In this document: positions 19,904-27,633 of the stretch, in pieces
Layout: each line of letters starts with the position of its first letter
Numbering within the stretch: position 1 is the first letter of the stretch
Source of the DNA: a virus
Lineage: Duplodnaviria; Heunggongvirae; Uroviricota; Caudoviricetes
IMG/VR virus record: IMGVR_UViG_2630968911_000005
Reading direction: 5' to 3' (one strand)
Length of the DNA stretch: 27,633 bases
Position numbers and translations under genes: made by a program
Notes under the pieces: model-generated
The model's database searches: none
What the model saw: the letters and a program-made list of their open reading frames with translations, nothing else
Told to the model about the DNA's origin: nothing

Positions 19904-20011
19904 CGTTTCCGTTCTTCTTCGTCGTAACTTAATGTTTTTATTTAAAATACCCCCTAAAAAGAAAGGAAACGACAGGTGCTGAAAACGAACTTTTGGGCCT
20001 CTGTCGTTTCC
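19904..20011 (+). promoter_or_regulatory. cosB: terminase Nu1 binding elements R3, R2, R1 with intervening IHF-site-like AT tract
   Basis: CGTTTCC at 19904-19910, GGAAACG at 19965-19971 (inverted), CGTTTCC at 20005-20011, in lambda-like arrangement upstream of Nu1. Confidence 0.75.
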
Positions 20012-20040
20012 TTTCTCTGTTTTTGGCCGTGGAATGAACA

Positions 20041-20562
20041 ATGGAAGTCAACAAAAAGCAGCTGGCTGACATTTTCGGTGCGAGTATCCGTACCATTCAG
20101 AACTGGCAGGAACAGGGAATGCCCGTTCTGCGAGGCGGTGGCAAGGGTAATGAGGTGCTTTATGACTCTGCCGCCGTTATAAGATGGTATGCCGAAAGGG
20201 ATGCTGAAATTGAGAACGAAAAGCTGCGCCGGGAAGTTGAAGAACTGCGGCGGGCCAGCGAGACAGATCTCCAGCCAGGGACTATTGAGTACGAACGCCA
20301 TCGACTTACGCGTGCGCAGGCCGACGCACAGGAGCTGAAAAATGCCAGAGACTCCGCTGAAGTGGTGGAAACCGCATTCTGTACTTTCGTGCTGTCGCGG
20401 ATCGCAGGTGAAATTGCCAGTATTCTCGACGGGATCCCCCTGTCGGTGCAGCGGCGTTTTCCGGAACTGGAAAACCGACATGTTGATTTCCTGAAACGGG
20501 ATATCATCAAAGCCATGAACAAAGCAGCCGCGCTGGATGAACTGATACAGCATGGACGTTGA
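20041..20562 (+). CDS. nohQ: Terminase small subunit Nu1 homolog; C-terminal about 11 residues replaced at a deletion junction
   Basis: [42 protein letters not shown]... matches lambda Nu1 through ...AAALDELI, then ends QHGR. Confidence 0.9.
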
Positions 20563-23500
20563 GTACGGTCAGTACAGCGTTATTCTGTTGGTGGAGGGAT
20601 TCCCGCCGTCACATGCCGGGACCATCACCGTGTATGAAGATTCTCAACCCGGTACGCTGAATGATTTTCTCGGTGCCATGACGGAGGATGATGCCCGTCC
20701 GGAGGCACTGCGTCGTTTTGAACTGATGGTGGAAGAGGTGGCGCGTAACGCGTCCGTGGTGGCACAGAACACGGCAGCCGCAAAGAAGTCAGCCAGTGAT
20801 GCCAGCACATCTGCCAGTGAGGCGGCAACCCGTGCGACTGATGCTGCAGATTCAGCACGTGCAGCCAGCACGTCAGCCGGACAGGCCGCGTCGTCGGCTC
20901 AGTCAGCGTCTTCCAGCGCAGGAACGGCATCAACAAAGGCCACTGAAGCCTCAAAAAGTGCTGCCGCTGCAGAGTCCTCAAAAAGCGCGGCGGCTACCAG
21001 TGCCGGTGCGGCGAAAACGTCAGAAACGAATGCGGCAGCGTCAGAACAATCAGCCGCCACTTCTGCATCCACCGCGACCACGAAAGCGTCAGAAGCTGCC
21101 ACCTCAGCCAGGGATGCGTCGGCTTCAAAAGAGGCGGCAAAATCATCAGAAACGAGCGCAGCCTCGAGCGCCAGTCGTGCAGCCTCCTCGGCAACAGCGG
21201 CAGGAACTTCCGCGAAGGCGGCAAAAACGTCCGAGACGAACGCAAAGTCTTCTGAGACGGCAGCGGGACAGAGTGCCTCCGCAGCAGCAGACTCAAAAAC
21301 AGCGGCTGCCTCATCTGCCAGCGCCGCGTCAACAAATGCCGGGCAGGCCTCAGCCAGTGCCACCGCTGCCGGAAAGTCGGCAGAAAGCGCCGCATCATCC
21401 GCTTCAACAGCCACAACGAAGGCTGGCGAAGCCACTGAACAGGCCACGGTAGCAGCGAGGTCAGCTTCCGCAGCGAAGACATCCGAAACGAACGCGAAAG
21501 CGTCGGAAACCAGCGCAGAATCCTCAAAAACGGCTGCCGCATCGTCAGCCAGTTCGGCGGCGTCATCGGCATCATCGGCGTCTGCTTCAAAAGATGAGGC
21601 GACCAGACAGGCGTCAGCAGCGAAGGGCAGCGCCACGACGGCATCCACGAAGGCGACAGAGGCAGCTGGCAGTGCGACGGCGGCAGCTCAGAGCAAAAGT
21701 ACGGCGGAATCCGCGGCAACGCGCGCCGAGACAGCAGCAAAACGGGCAGAGGATATTGCATCCGCCGTGGCGCTTGAGGATGCGAGCACGACGAAAAAGG
21801 GGATAGTACAGCTCAGCAGTGCGACCAACAGTACGTCTGAAACGCTGGCGGCAACGCCAAAGGCAGTAAAATCAGCCTATGACAATGCAGAGAAACGTCT
21901 GCAGAAAGACCAGAACGGCACTGATATACCCGATAAGGGACGCTTCCTGAACAACATTAACGCGGTCAGTAAAATAGACTTTGCTGATAAGCGTGGTATG
22001 CGTTATGTGCGGGTTAACGCTCCTGCAGGTGCAACATCTGGAAAATATTACCCTGTTGTTGTTATGCGTTCTGCTGGCTCAGTAAGCGAACTGGCATCAA
22101 GGGTCATTATCACCACGGCAACGCGAACCGCAGGCGATCCGATGAATAACTGCGAGTTTAACGGATTTGTTATGCCTGGTGGCTGGACTGACAGGGGGCG
22201 TTATGCTTATGGAATGTTCTGGCAATATCAAAACAATGAACGAGCCATCCACTCAATAATGATGAGTAATAAGGGCGATGATTTGCGCTCTGTGTTCTAT
22301 GTTGATGGCGCTGCTTTCCCTGTTTTTGCGTTTATCGAAGATGGCCTGTCAATATCCGCACCTGGTGCTGATCTCGTTGTTAATGATACGACCTATAAGT
22401 TTGGGGCAACAAATCCAGCGACTGAATGTATCGCGGCGGACGTTATCCTTGATTTTAAGAGTGGGCGTGGTTTTTATGAGTCTCATTCGTTAATCGTTAA
22501 CGATAATTTGTCGTGCAAAAAACTTTTTGCCACAGACGAAATTGTAGCGCGTGGTGGTAATCAGATTCGAATGATAGGTGGGGAGTATGGTGCATTATGG
22601 CGTAATGATGGCGCTAAAACTTACCTGCTGCTTACCAATCAAGGTGATGTTTATGGTGGCTGGAATACATTAAGACCGTTTGCTATTGATAACGCAACCG
22701 GCGAACTGGTTATTGGAACCAAACTGTCCGCAAGTCTGAACGGTAATGCATTAACAGCAACAAAGCTGCAAACGCCAAGACGGGTTTCTGGTGTTGAGTT
22801 TGATGGTTCCAAAGATATTACTTTAACCGCCGCGCATGTGGCTGCTTTTGCCAGAAGGGCAACGGATACATATGCCGATGCGGATGGTGGCGTTCCCTGG
22901 AATGCCGAATCAGGTGCTTACAATGTCACCCGCTCTGGCGACAGCTATATTCTGGTTAACTTCTATACCGGAGTCGGAAGTTGCCGGACCTTGCAGATGA
23001 AGGCGCATTACAGAAATGGTGGTCTGTTCTACCGTTCTTCAAGAGACGGTTATGGTTTTGAGGATGACTGGGCAGAAGTTTATACCTCGAAAAATCTTCC
23101 ACCAGAAAGCTACCCAGTCGGCGCACCAATCCCGTGGCCATCAGATACCGTTCCGTCTGGCTATGCCCTGATGCAGGGGCAGACTTTTGACAAATCTGCA
23201 TACCCGAAACTTGCAGTGGCTTATCCGTCAGGCGTTATTCCTGATATGCGTGGCTGGACGATTAAGGGCAAGCCCGCCAGTGGTCGTGCCGTATTGTCTC
23301 AGGAACAGGACGGCATTAAATCGCACACCCACAGCGCCAGCGCATCCAGTACGGATTTGGGGACGAAAACCACATCATCGTTTGATTACGGCACTAAATC
23401 CACGAATAACACTGGTGCACATACCCATAGTGTTAGCGGTACGGCTGCTTCAGCCGGTGCACATACCCATTCGATGACATTTGTTTCAGGTGGTTCCAGT

Positions 23501-23752
23501 GGTGCTCCGGGAAGTGGATCACCTGATTATTCTAAATACAGTGTTAACACTTCTTCTGCAGGCGCTCATACGCACTCTGTATCGGGTACTGCTGCAAGCG
23601 CAGGTGCACACGCACATACTGTCGGTATTGGTGCTCATACGCACTCCGTTGCGATTGGCTCACATGGACACACCATCACCGTTAACGCTGCTGGTAACGC
23701 GGAAAACACCGTCAAAAACATCGCATTTAACTATATTGTGAGGCTTGCATAA
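20552..23752 (+). CDS. stfQ: Side tail fibre protein (lambda Stf family), N-terminally truncated by deletion
   Basis: Begins at lambda Stf internal [12 protein letters not shown]. Long Ala/Ser/Thr repeats (AAKTSETNA...). C-terminal GAHTHS repeats and ...[14 protein letters not shown]. Confidence 0.9.
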
Positions 23753-24327
23753 TGGCATTCAGAATGAGTGAACAACCACGGACCATAACAATTTATAATC
23801 TGCTGGCCGGAACTAATGAATTTATTGGTGAAGGTGATGCATATATTCCGCCTCATACAGGTCTGCCAGCAAACAGTACCGATATTGCACCGCCAGATAT
23901 TCCGGCTGGCTTCGTGGCTGTTTTCAACAGTGATGAGTCATCGTGGCATCTCGTTGAAGATCATCGGGGTAAAACGGTTTATGACGTGGCTTCCGGCGAC
24001 GCGTTATTTATTTCTGAACTCGGTCCGTTACCGAAAAATGTTACCTGGTTATCGCCGGAAGGGGAGTTTCAGAAGTGGAACGGCACAGCCTGGGTGAAGG
24101 ATACGGAAGCAGAAAAACTGTTCCGGATCCGGGAGGCGGAAGAAACAAAAAACAACCTGATGCAGGTAGCCAGTGAGCATATTGCGCCGCTTCAGGATGC
24201 TGCAGATCTGGAAATTGCAACGGAGGAAGAAATCTCGTTGCTGGAAGCATGGAAAAAGTATCGGGTATTGCTGAACCGTGTTGATACGTCAACTGCACAG
24301 GATATTGAATGGCCAGCACTGCCGTAG
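23752..24327 (+). CDS. tfaQ: Tail fibre assembly protein (Tfa)
   Basis: 191-aa ORF overlapping the stf stop (TAATG). N-terminus [26 protein letters not shown]. Confidence 0.85.
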
Positions 24328-24424
24328 GGTAAAACATATAAATTCTTTAATTAGATGTATCTTTCCATTTACGGCAAGGAAGGGGGCTTGGAAGACGTAA
24401 AGCATCTCACACCGAGATTATTTT

Positions 24425-25015
24425 TTATATGTCAGGTGTCTGAAGTTTTGCTTTGGCTCTTAAAATGGTTTGCCGCGAGGTTTTGAATTCCCGGGCAATG
24501 GCACTTATACTTACACCTGACTTAATTCGTTCGAATACCACCTGTTTCTGTTCTTCATTTAACACAGGTGGTCGACCAAAACGTTTCCCTGCGCCGCGGG
24601 CTCTTACTATCCCGGAATGAGTGCGTTCAAGTAAAAGGTCTCGTTCAAATTCAGCAACTGCTGAAATTACTTGCATCATCATTTTTCCTGTTGGACTGGT
24701 CAAGTCAATGCCCCCCAATGCTAAGCAATGTACTCTGATACCTGTTTCGGTCAGTTGTTCCACTGTTTTCCTGATATCCATTGCATTACAACCAAGGCGA
24801 TCCAGTTTTGTCACAATCAATTGATCACCACATTTCAGGCGAGCAAGCAACCGGTTAAAACTAGGACGCTCACTGGTTGCTGCTGAGCCGCTAATGTGTT
24901 CTTCGATTATTTGCTGAGGTTTGATTTTAAAACCTGCACTTTCGATTTCCCGGCGTTGATTTTCGGTGGTCTGATCCAGCGTTGATATCCGACAGTAAGC
25001 AAAAATTCGAGACAT
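24425..25015 (-). CDS. pinQ: Serine recombinase DNA invertase (Pin/Gin/Hin family)
   Basis: [20 protein letters not shown]... with the catalytic serine in the RIST motif. C-terminal HTH. Confidence 0.92.
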
Positions 25016-25331
25016 AGTGAGACTCTATACGAAATTGGTGTTCATATCATAATGCATCGCAGAAAATAATTTTGATTATTTTTGTGCATATTTGTATGTA
25101 CACGTTCGAAAATAAACGAATGCGTATGCAACCCCGTAATTTTGGTGAGACCCAAAATCGATTTTGTGAAAAATGGCTTTAACTCGGTTTGTTTTTCGAG
25201 TTCCGGGCGGACTCAAGGAAGAAGAATAGTGTTTCGTGTTATTTTAACCAGATTTTAAGTTGTTTGGTCGTGGAAAAGTGGAGCAAAATGTTGTTAAAGT
25301 GGAAAAATGATAAAAAAGTAAGTTTATTATA

Positions 25332-25565
25332 TTACATTTTACCATTTAAATTTTGGTTGTCTTTAAGAACTGATATCGCTGTTTGTAATAATTCTTTGTT
25401 ATCCAGCCATGATTTTTTCTTTATGTTTCCTTCAATGTAATCAAGCAATGTTCTGGTATTGATAGGTCTTCCCTGTTTTGCTACTTCCACTACAGCATCC
25501 CCTAGGATAATTCTTACTTCAGGAAGCTGCGCAGGGAACCACTTTAGGGTGTCTTTTGATTTCAT
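25332..25565 (-). CDS. ydfK: YdfK/YnaE-like small protein (77 aa)
   Basis: ATG at 25563-25565 with AAGGAA about 8 nt upstream. The ORF track begins 11 codons upstream. Confidence 0.75.
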   Translation of the reverse strand: MKSKDTLKWFPAQLPEVRIILGDAVVEVAKQGRPINTRTLLDYIEGNIKKKSWLDNKELLQTAISVLKDNQNLNGKM

Positions 25566-26349
25566 GAAGATATTCCTTAAAATATTATTGATTTTCATTG
25601 CGATATTGTATGTCTGATTCAGGATATGTTGACTTATACATCGGTTTTGTCTGGGTTATTGGATATGCCAATCCCTAATTTTATTAGGGCATGACTAAAA
25701 ATGCTGAATATGATAAGGAGAGAAGTGATTATCAGTATGCTGTTCATATAGCCTCGAATTAGTAATGTGTTATATATGATATAGTTGACAATTTTTATCT
25801 TGGGTGTTCTTAAAGTTCGTAGATAAACATTGTCGTTTCAGGTATACAGGAATGCTAACAGGTGGCAGCAAAAATCAGGCGGTTATGGCGCAAGCTGAAG
25901 CGGCAACTGCAAACTATCTTATGCAGAGACTCTACACGGATTGGGTTTAAAAGTATACATAGATAACAGTTTTTATCTGAAAAAGAAAAATATCAAGGTG
26001 ATATAGCCTATATGCCTTTGATGCGGAGGAATGAATGTGATGGGAGTGATGTATCTGAATAGTTGAAAAACCGCAGACACGCCTTATGCAAGAACGTGCT
26101 GCGGTTGGCTGGTAAATTTTTCGATAGTGTGAGTATTGAATGATTTCCAGCCGTTCTTGATTTTACGCATAAATCCATGAAAAAACTACTTATCTGTTGG
26201 GGAGTTTTTTTGGGGCATATATGGGACAGAAATAGGCCCCAGATAGACACTGAGATCGAACTTAGGATGCTTTTTAAAAAATGCAACTATCTGAAAAAAC
26301 CTAGAAAACGCCAAGGAAACCACAGGATGGGAAAAAACACCTGTGAATT

Positions 26350-27633
26350 ATGGATTTCCAGTTATATTCGCTCGGCGCAGCGTTAGTGTTTCATGAAATA
26401 TTTTTTCCTGAATCATCAACGGCAATGGCGTTAATTCTGGCAATGGGAACCTACGGTGCAGGTTATGTGGCGCGTATTGTCGGAGCATTTATTTTCGGCA
26501 AAATGGGCGACAGAATAGGGCGTAAAAAAGTGCTCTTTTTTACCATCACCATGATGGGGATCTGTACCACCTTAATTGGTGTGTTACCGACCTATGCACA
26601 GATTGGTGTTTTTGCACCCATCTTGCTGGTGACGTTGCGTATTATTCAGGGGTTGGGTGCAGGTGCGGAAATTTCCGGTGCCGGTACGATGCTGGCGGAA
26701 TATGCGCCAAAAGGTAAGCGCGGAATTATCTCCTCATTTGTGGCTATGGGAACTAACTGCGGAACCTTGAGCGCAACGGCAATCTGGGCCTTTATGTTCT
26801 TCATTCTCAGTAAAGAGGAACTGCTGGCGTGGGGATGGCGTATACCGTTCCTGGCGAGCGTTGTCGTGATGGTCTTTGCTATCTGGTTGCGTATGAATCT
26901 GAAAGAAAGCCCGGTCTTTGAGAAGGTTAACGACAGTAACCAACCGACAGCAAAACCTGCACCTGCTGGTAGCATGTTCCAGAGCAAATCCTTCTGGCTG
27001 GCAACAGGGCTGCGTTTTGGTCAGGCGGGTAACTCCGGGTTAATTCAGACTTTCCTTGCAGGCTATTTAGTGCAGACGTTATTGTTTAACAAAGCAATTC
27101 CAACAGATGCATTGATGATCAGTTCGATTCTCGGCTTTATGACCATTCCGTTCCTTGGTTGGTTATCCGATAAAATTGGTCGCCGGATCCCGTATATTAT
27201 TATGAATACCTCCGCGATTGTGCTGGCATGGCCAATGCTTTCTATCATTGTAGATAAAAGCTATGCCCCGAGCACCATTATGGTTGCACTGATTGTGATT
27301 CATAACTGTGCGGTGCTGGGATTATTTGCTCTGGAAAACATTACCATGGCAGAAATGTTCGGCTGTAAAAACCGCTTTACCCGGATGGCTATTTCTAAAG
27401 AAATTGGTGGTCTTATCGCTTCCGGTTTTGGTCCTATCCTGGCGGGTATTTTCTGCACCATGACGGAATCCTGGTATCCGATCGCCATTATGATCATGGC
27501 ATATTCAGTGATTGGTTTAATCTCTGCGCTGAAAATGCCAGAGGTGAAAGACCGTGATTTAAGTGCGCTGGAAGACGCTGCGGAAGATCAACCGCGTGTT
27601 GTAAGAGCTGCGCAACCTTCCAGAAGTCTGTAA
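26350..27633 (+). CDS. ydfJ: MFS transporter, metabolite:H+ symporter family, 5'-truncated at the prophage junction
   Basis: GKMGDRIGRKK loop motif lies at residue about 50; by comparison with ProP as recalled the frame starts mid-TM1. In-frame TGA two codons upstream of the first ATG. Confidence 0.85.
   Translation: MDFQLYSLGAALVFHEIFFPESSTAMALILAMGTYGAGYVARIVGAFIFGKMGDRIGRKKVLFFTITMMGICTTLIGVLPTYAQIGVFAPILLVTLRIIQGLGAGAEISGAGTMLAEYAPKGKRGIISSFVAMGTNCGTLSATAIWAFMFFILSKEELLAWGWRIPFLASVVVMVFAIWLRMNLKESPVFEKVNDSNQPTAKPAPAGSMFQSKSFWLATGLRFGQAGNSGLIQTFLAGYLVQTLLFNKAIPTDALMISSILGFMTIPFLGWLSDKIGRRIPYIIMNTSAIVLAWPMLSIIVDKSYAPSTIMVALIVIHNCAVLGLFALENITMAEMFGCKNRFTRMAISKEIGGLIASGFGPILAGIFCTMTESWYPIAIMIMAYSVIGLISALKMPEVKDRDLSALEDAAEDQPRVVRAAQPSRSL

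Follow-up and report, generated by a model that had tools for sequence, protein, structure and literature searches.

Why a gene annotated as a DNA invertase should stand beside tail-fibre genes with no evident segment to invert is the question raised by pinQ in IMG/VR virus record IMGVR_UViG_2630968911_000005. The stretch analysed (27,633 nt, hereafter the window) is the right end of the Escherichia coli cryptic prophage Qin, with the gene order nohA-stfQ-tfaQ, pinQ-ydfK-ynfT and ydfJ'. The pinQ gene (24425-25015, minus strand) is an intact open reading frame (ORF) of 196 amino acids with Pfam Resolvase and HTH_7 domains. Its upstream region is present in 2,801 of 5,426 complete E. coli genomes; pinQ and pinR, which thus occur in about half of them, are annotated and discussed as prophage DNA invertases. 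The comparisons below make it likely that pinQ is instead the leftover tnpR of a decayed Tn3-family transposon, that its catalysis is strongly reduced, and that the palindromes upstream of it are incidental.

Judged by its sequence, PinQ belongs with the TnpR proteins (Tn3-family resolvases) among the small serine recombinases and is not a Din-family invertase. The closest relatives are encoded on E. coli plasmids (84% identity, up to 512 contigs) and in Shewanella and Erwinia (77-78%), with identities of 57-78% in a scan of species-representative genomes and 77-84% among protein clusters. In phage records searched by tblastn, 11 lambdoid phages carry a PinQ-like protein at 98.5-99.5% identity; the next matches are at 61% (an Erwinia phage) and then 44%, and the Din invertases, among them those of Mu, P1 and phi80, all fall at 35-38%. 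The helix-turn-helix (HTH) is almost identical between Pin and its relatives, in which it reads SISAIAREF(N/S/R)TTRQTILRV(K/R). The K-12 proteins PinQ and PinR (b1545 and b1374) represent the same gene with no difference of substance; K-12 PinQ differs from the window protein at three amino acids, and shares its upstream region, its palindrome and the cysteine at position 76 that is discussed below.

The relatives are also alike in their surroundings. In the case of the 84% relative, a spacer of 160 bp separates the gene from a divergent transposase of 994 amino acids (domains DUF4158 and DDE_Tnp_Tn3), and inverted repeats of 39 bp enclose the unit. The relatives in Shewanella (77%), Oxalobacteraceae and Parasedimentitalea have the same Tn3-family transposase as a neighbour, of 994-995 amino acids with both domains and transcribed divergently, and PinQ is orthologous to these transposase-adjoining proteins. 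On one annotated plasmid the PinQ homologue is labelled "Tn3 family ... ISYps3". Among the sampled close relatives with readable neighbours, the gene is either a transposon resolvase or stands alone, and is never found beside an invertible segment. The window itself contains no Tn3-family transposase gene (tnpA).

Homology to such a transposon extends beyond the coding sequence on both sides. BLAST comparison of the pin region with the plasmid transposon L033 returned one match (81.7% over 712 nt, running from window position 25095 to 24386), which spans the homologue of res subsite II, the -10 box, subsite III, the whole gene and the downstream terminal inverted repeat. The remnant of this repeat, GGGGGCTTGGAAGACGTAAAGCATCTCACACCGAGATT (24382-24419, plus strand from outer to inner end), lies about 5 nt beyond the pinQ stop codon. 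It aligns with the 39-nt inverted repeat present at both ends of the L033 transposon (GGGGTCCGCTTGGAAAACGGAAAATATCCCACGCTAAGA) at 28 of 36 positions, with a 3-nt gap. A terminal inverted repeat of about 38 bp starting with GGGG is a Tn3-family feature; one of the two repeats is kept here, and the second is not detectable.

In Tn3 and gamma-delta, the resolvase resolves cointegrates at site I of res, and it represses both tnpA and tnpR. The close relatives of PinQ have a res array upstream of the ATG that consists, at approximate positions, of a 12-2-12 site I (half-sites at -115(+) and -101(-)), a site II (-75(+) and -55(-)) and a site III (-37(-) and -24(-)). Their half-sites, TGT(A/C)CGAAA in type, are similar to the classical motif of gamma-delta and Tn3. 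A TATAAT or TATGAT lies between sites II and III, at the same place in loci L014, L016, L018, L015, L017 and L033. The TATGAT on the pin strand at 25046-25051 is, from its position and conservation, likely to be the -10 box of the pinQ promoter.

A half-site matrix was built from 36 half-sites of the relatives, on which true half-sites score 8-16 bits. The only good half-site in the window is TATACGAAAT at 25026-25035 (10.1 bits, empirical p = 7e-5), all others scoring at most 5.3 bits. It forms part of the subsite III homologue (25026-25047, minus strand), which lies between the -10 box and the ATG, and it aligns with ATATGTACACCCATTTCGTACA in L033; its partner at 25038-25047 is eroded. In the subsite II homologue (25057-25088, minus strand, 32 nt) both half-sites are eroded, with TGCACAAAAA in place of TGTCCGAAAG and TTTTCTGCGA in place of CTTTCGGATA (2.3 and -4.9 bits); the subsite falls within the BLAST matches to L033, L014 and L016, which end at window position 25094-25095. 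Subsite I, the crossover site, was not recognisable in a dimer scan with the half-site matrix, the best candidates reaching at most 5 bits against 23-27 in the relatives. Of the three subsites of a complete res, then, II and III are recognisable by homology in eroded form.

Two other loci of the family also have half-site arrays. On Erwinia oleae contig83 (L018:1268-2652), two PinQ-family genes diverge from one 203-bp spacer, in which half-site arrays mirror each other about one central site I (12-2-12). A res of this double-resolvase kind is unusual. In Erwinia phage LS-2018a (L003:5880-6606), a 60%-identical family member lies between ORFs that are terminase-like and portal-like as named from their position. 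It has a complete array of six half-sites of the form TGTACTAAA, with a T in place of the G that is invariant in the others, which may possibly reflect co-variation of protein and site.

Upstream of the BLAST match, the distal part of the pinQ-ydfK spacer (25096-25331) is phage-specific DNA without detectable transposon homology. Its Smith-Waterman score against the L033 segment containing the tnpA leader and site I was 15, compared with 15.8 +/- 2.2 in shuffles. In the plasmid collection, only five records match the distal spacer, all from E. coli; three are as large as chromosomes (4.8-4.9 Mb), and none is typed as mobilizable. The proximal part, by contrast, matches 1,762 plasmid records.

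On the other side, 54 bp (24328-24381) separate the tfaQ stop codon from the outer end of the inverted repeat, and this spacer accompanies pin in all pin-carrying phages. The tfa 3' end and the complete spacer occur together only in the 11 pin-carrying phage records, and other lambdoid phages match to 6 nt past the tfa stop codon. An empty site (tfa without pin) that would define the insertion point was not found, the 54-bp spacer occurring only with pin. The block of tfa remnant, spacer, inverted repeat, pin, upstream region and ydfK is present in all 11 records, which were deposited as complete phage genomes, and some of these have unrelated fibre genes. Phage HannyBb (L002), Tritos and PhiR63_1 have different tail-fibre genes, yet retain the last ~100 nt of tfa and the 54-bp spacer beside pin. 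Given that the same block is found beside differing fibre genes, the tfa remnant, inverted repeat, pin and ydfK appear to move as a unit, independently of the fibre module.

PinQ retains Y7, R9, S11, E39, R73 and other catalytic residues, Glu39 being Glu throughout the subfamily. The complete Tn3 catalytic set (Y6, R8, S10, D36, R68 and R71) is not present, because the equivalent of R71 is Cys76. This position is Arg in all ten aligned relatives, and structure-based alignments place Cys76 opposite the LDRLGR arginine (R71) of Gin and gamma-delta resolvase. Among the 120 closest cluster representatives, Arg is found in 114 and Cys in five, all PinQ/PinR-type, and one falls outside the search pattern. 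The five Cys clusters comprise about 3,950 sequences; wherever the context of a cluster is known it is a prophage, and one lineage among them is only 84% identical and also adjoins tfa. With R71A or R71K, Tn3 resolvase no longer recombines, and its cleavage falls about 1000-fold or more (PMC2794168). By analogy with these mutants, the change from Arg to Cys predicts strongly reduced strand cleavage in the prophage clade. Between the two Cys76 lineages the ratio of nonsynonymous to synonymous change (dN/dS) is 0.33, and comparisons with the transposon gene give 0.14-0.19, which indicates that selection on the PinQ/PinR clade is relaxed yet still purifying.

Some genomes carry further variants of the gene. 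In E. coli GCA_910593615 (L117:5620-6700), a prophage pin lies beside a ynaE-like gene and a tfa that is split by an IS66 element. Over its first ~540 nt and the adjacent part of res, this pin matches the plasmid transposon tnpR completely or almost so, without a difference in any 60-nt window compared and with Arg76, whereas the 3' end and the distal upstream region are of the prophage type. This mosaic suggests gene conversion between plasmid transposon and prophage copies. The genomes of Shigella flexneri (L024) and E. coli ECGI0523 (L025) contain extra pin copies that look like pseudogenes; after about codon 13 the copy in L025 is out of frame, and its upstream palindrome is also broken (CAAAATGGATTTTC).

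A history that would account for the locus begins in a lambdoid phage of the Rac/Qin type, where a Tn3-family transposon resembling ISYps3 inserted some 55 bp downstream of tfa and later decayed. The survivors are one terminal inverted repeat (24382-24419), tnpR in the form of pinQ, and the tnpR-proximal two thirds of res (25026-25088). Since the DNA-binding domain is almost identical to that of the transposon relatives, the cognate half-site of PinQ should be TGT(A/C)CGAAA. With a single such half-site surviving between promoter and ATG, the most likely residual activity in cis is weak binding near the gene's own promoter, and PinQ may regulate its own expression as the TnpR proteins of Tn3 and gamma-delta do.

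If PinQ is such a resolvase, no invertible segment is expected, because enzymes of its lineage resolve cointegrates at res and do not flip tail-fibre cassettes. The first-pass annotation of this DNA reported a single tfa and no hix- or gix-like crossover sites around stf-tfa, and both observations were borne out. Tfa and the Stf C-terminus each gave one tblastn match in the window, so there is no alternative fibre cassette, and no second C-terminus or tfa cassette in the opposite orientation was found. Din invertases act at two 26-bp crossover sites with a consensus of about TTCNCNNAAACC-NN-GGTTTNNGNGAA, placed in inverted orientation around the invertible segment, and their systems also include an enhancer of recombination that depends on Fis, located within or close to the 5' end of the invertase gene. 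The consensus TTCNCNNAAACCNNGGTTTNNGNGAA (hix/gix/cix/pix type) had no match in the window at up to three mismatches, and the core AAACCNNGGTTT (AAACC-NN-GGTTT) occurs there at chance level. Within 20000-26400, no inverted repeats flank stf-tfa; the repeat pairs are short, imperfect and unrelated to gene boundaries, and the longest (20-27 nt, 73-80% complementarity) look like scatter.

Nor does the window contain a substrate for PinQ of its own family type. No dimeric site was found in its 27.6 kb at any plausible spacing, the best 26-bp dimer scoring 5.5 bits, compared with 23-27 for site I of the relatives and about 8 for the best match in shuffled sequence. The recombinase is therefore orphaned in cis, as had been proposed from the missing segment, though for a different reason: there is no Din site, second cassette or own-family dimeric site for it to act on, but the gene is not a Pin/Din invertase that was stripped of its segment. 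As a remnant of a Tn3-family tnpR, it would never have had one. For annotation, this means that a recombinase adjoining tail-fibre genes need not be an invertase.

The palindromes that had been described upstream of pin exist, at coordinates shifted slightly to 25140-25166. They consist of TTTTGG (25140-25145), TGAGAC (25146-25151) and CCAAAA (25152-25157), the last overlapping a perfect palindromic 14-mer, CAAAATCGATTTTG (25153-25166). The suggestion that they form an operator or a degenerate recombination site is not supported. They lie 45-70 bp outside the demonstrably transposon-derived DNA, and the palindrome halves score 1.2 and -5.2 bits on the family half-site matrix, against 8-16 for true half-sites. 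Perfect palindromes of at least 14 bp number three in the window, against 1.9 expected from Markov-1 resampled sequences, and the 14-mer itself has four matches at up to three mismatches, against 3.0 expected. Variation within the palindrome is as great as in its flanks (94 copies; 35 usable of 39 distinct upstream haplotypes). The 112 viral contigs that contain the exact 22-mer around it have one copy each, with no partner site in any of them, and there is no second copy in the window. The palindromes are thus probably fortuitous, though they might act as an operator for another protein.

Three further lines of evidence on the palindrome were considered and set aside. Footprinting among E. 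coli phages was uninformative, since the copies are mostly at least 97% alike and in the 89.5% variant the palindrome has changed at least as much as average. An alignment of the palindrome with the site I and tnpA leader of L033, made by eye and globally (about 70% over 30 nt, as if site I had been split by a 21-bp insertion), was not significant against shuffles (15 against 15.8). Three CAAAAT motifs, read as eroded half-sites, were no more common than background at 8 or more matches of 11 (107 in the window against 95 expected) and showed no excess clustering.

Two roles for the palindromes have nonetheless to be weighed. It is quite improbable that they are a binding site of PinQ itself, either a degenerate or re-specified crossover site or an operator. 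On that account the 24-bp TTTCACAAAAT-CG-ATTTTGGGTCT (25148-25171) would form a half-site, a 2-bp centre and a second half-site, with the similar third motif TCACCAAAAT adjoining, and PinQ dimers bound there would control the expression of pinQ or ydfK, or form a synapse with a distant site. The position is roughly right, 125-156 bp upstream of the ATG where the site I of relatives is at -115 to -90; AGACCCAAAAT and TCACCAAAATT match the left half of L033 site I (TGACCGAAAAT) at 9 and 8 of 11 positions, respectively; and the palindrome 26-mer agrees with the layout of the e14 pix consensus at 14 of 24 half-site positions in a comparison by eye. Matches of this quality to the L033 motif are, however, at the chance level given above, and all three motifs lack the G6 that is invariant in close relatives (only the distant Erwinia phage has T) and score at most 1.2 bits. 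With 24 bp, the spacing falls short of the 26 bp found in site I of relatives, the distal region has no significant homology to the transposon site I region, and the palindrome, single in each phage, varies no less than its flanks in the 35 haplotypes, some with one-sided changes. It is also improbable, if somewhat less so, that a regulator from the host or a phage, with no relation to PinQ, binds the palindromes, or that they signal transcript termination or processing downstream of ydfK. A perfect dyad does lie in an AT-rich intergenic region between two co-oriented genes, and the RNA can fold into an 8-bp stem with a loop of 6 nt. Against this, the stem is not followed by a U-run, no terminator is called, the fold of the region is no better than shuffles (z = -0.64), no Rfam family matches at the palindrome, and the sequence is neither repeated elsewhere in the window nor specially conserved.

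The remaining rival concerns the enzyme. PinQ could be a bona fide invertase acting in trans, with the P segment of prophage e14 (pix sites) as its natural substrate, so that Qin would need no site of its own and the palindrome would be irrelevant or an operator. This is the conclusion of a recent study, in which over-production of PinQ raised inversion of the e14 P segment from ~30% to ~88% (PMC12529663, NAR 2025). The 88% was obtained with plasmid-borne pinQ, inversion was lower in a pinQ deletion, and the effect was lost in stfP or stfE deletions or when e14 was deleted (PMC12529663). PinQ is also slightly nearer in sequence to Gin than to gamma-delta resolvase (PDB matches at 1.9e-28 and 1.7e-21, gamma-delta or Tn3 resolvase being at about 2e-21). 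The claim nevertheless fits poorly with PinQ, because its DNA-binding domain is of the resolvase type, which recognises TGT(A/C)CGAAA, a motif dissimilar to the pix half-site TTCTCCCAAACC, and because it has Cys at the position of a catalytic Arg. Its nearest relatives are all in tnpA-res-tnpR units, and it is 38% identical to PinE (PMC12529663). The same study found no inversions in Qin or Rac, and its pinE mutant was locked in one orientation, from which it follows that chromosomal PinQ alone does not invert. A term search of the main text found neither an in vitro reaction nor a mutant of the catalytic serine or of any other catalytic residue, and a text search found no mention of Cys76, of a resolvase relationship or of a transposon origin; a 2026 PLoS Biology paper only cites the result. 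Direct catalysis by PinQ at pix is unproven and not refuted, and a trans-acting invertase is considered unlikely. A little less likely still is that the PinQ/PinR clade is a domesticated resolvase without efficient catalysis, which lambdoid phages keep as a sequence-specific DNA-binding protein. Such a protein might act as a repressor or dominant-negative partner on the res sites of incoming ISYps3-like transposons and plasmids, or might modulate another recombinase such as PinE; the latter, if true, would explain the reported orientation bias of the e14 P segment without PinQ cutting DNA.

Some observations weigh against a stranded, crippled resolvase with incidental palindromes. Besides the over-production result and the conclusion drawn from it, the partner half-site in subsite III is eroded and autoregulation is argued from Tn3 and gamma-delta. 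Crippled catalysis is likewise a prediction from Tn3 mutants. Finally, a 2H10-type haplotype changes the outermost pair of the 14-mer from C..G to A..T symmetrically, which hints at selection for symmetry and would also favour a PinQ binding site; the case is weak, since one-sided haplotypes exist.

A decayed transposon remnant would on its own be an ordinary finding, and the additional interest here is modest, stemming from how common the gene is, from its usual annotation as an invertase and from the functional claim now made for it. Identity as a stranded resolvase would change the plausible substrates and mechanisms of PinQ, and the published mechanism for its anti-phage effect rests on invertase activity. 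The sequence features described above make a direct catalytic role of PinQ worth re-testing.

The rest of the locus is that of a reduced prophage. Positions 23700-26400 match the Qin end of several E. coli chromosomes at 100% identity, and there tfaQ, pinQ, ydfK, ynfT and a truncated ydfJ are annotated. The tfaQ gene (23752-24327, plus strand; the PGAP name) matches Pfam Caudo_TAP (E = 6.9e-43), is the window's sole gene for tail-fibre assembly and is convergent with pinQ. Its 3' end contains a partial match to Rfam RF02111 (IS009) at 24200-24293 on the plus strand (91.9 bits, E = 4.5e-21), which is cut by the start of the searched range and belongs to an RNA family that overlaps the tfa coding sequence. 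The next gene upstream of pinQ on the same strand is ydfK (25332-25598, minus strand; cold-shock protein YdfK, PHROG 2718), a range that denotes the longest ORF of 267 nt, whereas PGAP annotates ydfK at the 100% identical locus as a 234-nt ORF at about 25332-25565. Truncated ydfJ' starts at 26350. On the other side, stfQ (20552-23752, plus strand) encodes 1066 amino acids and is far longer than the K-12 allele (~320 amino acids). It overlaps the end of a nohA-like small-terminase gene (20041-20562, plus strand; from the ORF list and Pfam), and PGAP flags stf as lacking its N-terminus (window 20041-23752). Both features suggest that the whole head and tail region between the packaging and side tail-fibre genes has been deleted.

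PinQ resembles the Din invertases (Gin of Mu, Cin of P1, Hin of Salmonella and PinE of e14) in size, domain layout, tail-fibre neighbourhood and the name Pin. It differs from them in an identity of ~38-40%, in the lack of 26-bp crossover sites and of an alternative cassette, and in being convergent with tfa. Din invertases are ~60-70% identical to one another. PinQ does not reach this level, with 35-38% to Gin, Cin and phage invertases and 38% to PinE (PMC12529663), compared with 77-84% to transposon resolvases. The closer comparison is with the TnpR/res systems of the Tn3 family, for which Tn3 and gamma-delta are the paradigm and ISYps3-like elements on enterobacterial plasmids, such as L033, the closest examples. 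An intact element of this family would have a transposase, a second inverted repeat and subsite I, all absent here, and five of the six half-sites are eroded and R71 is replaced by Cys. Despite these losses, PinQ shares with such elements 77-84% identity, a homologous inverted repeat, the -10 box, res subsites II and III and the same HTH. Unlike the usual Tn3-family element, it is embedded in a lambdoid phage beside tfa, and recurs there in 11 deposited phage genomes.

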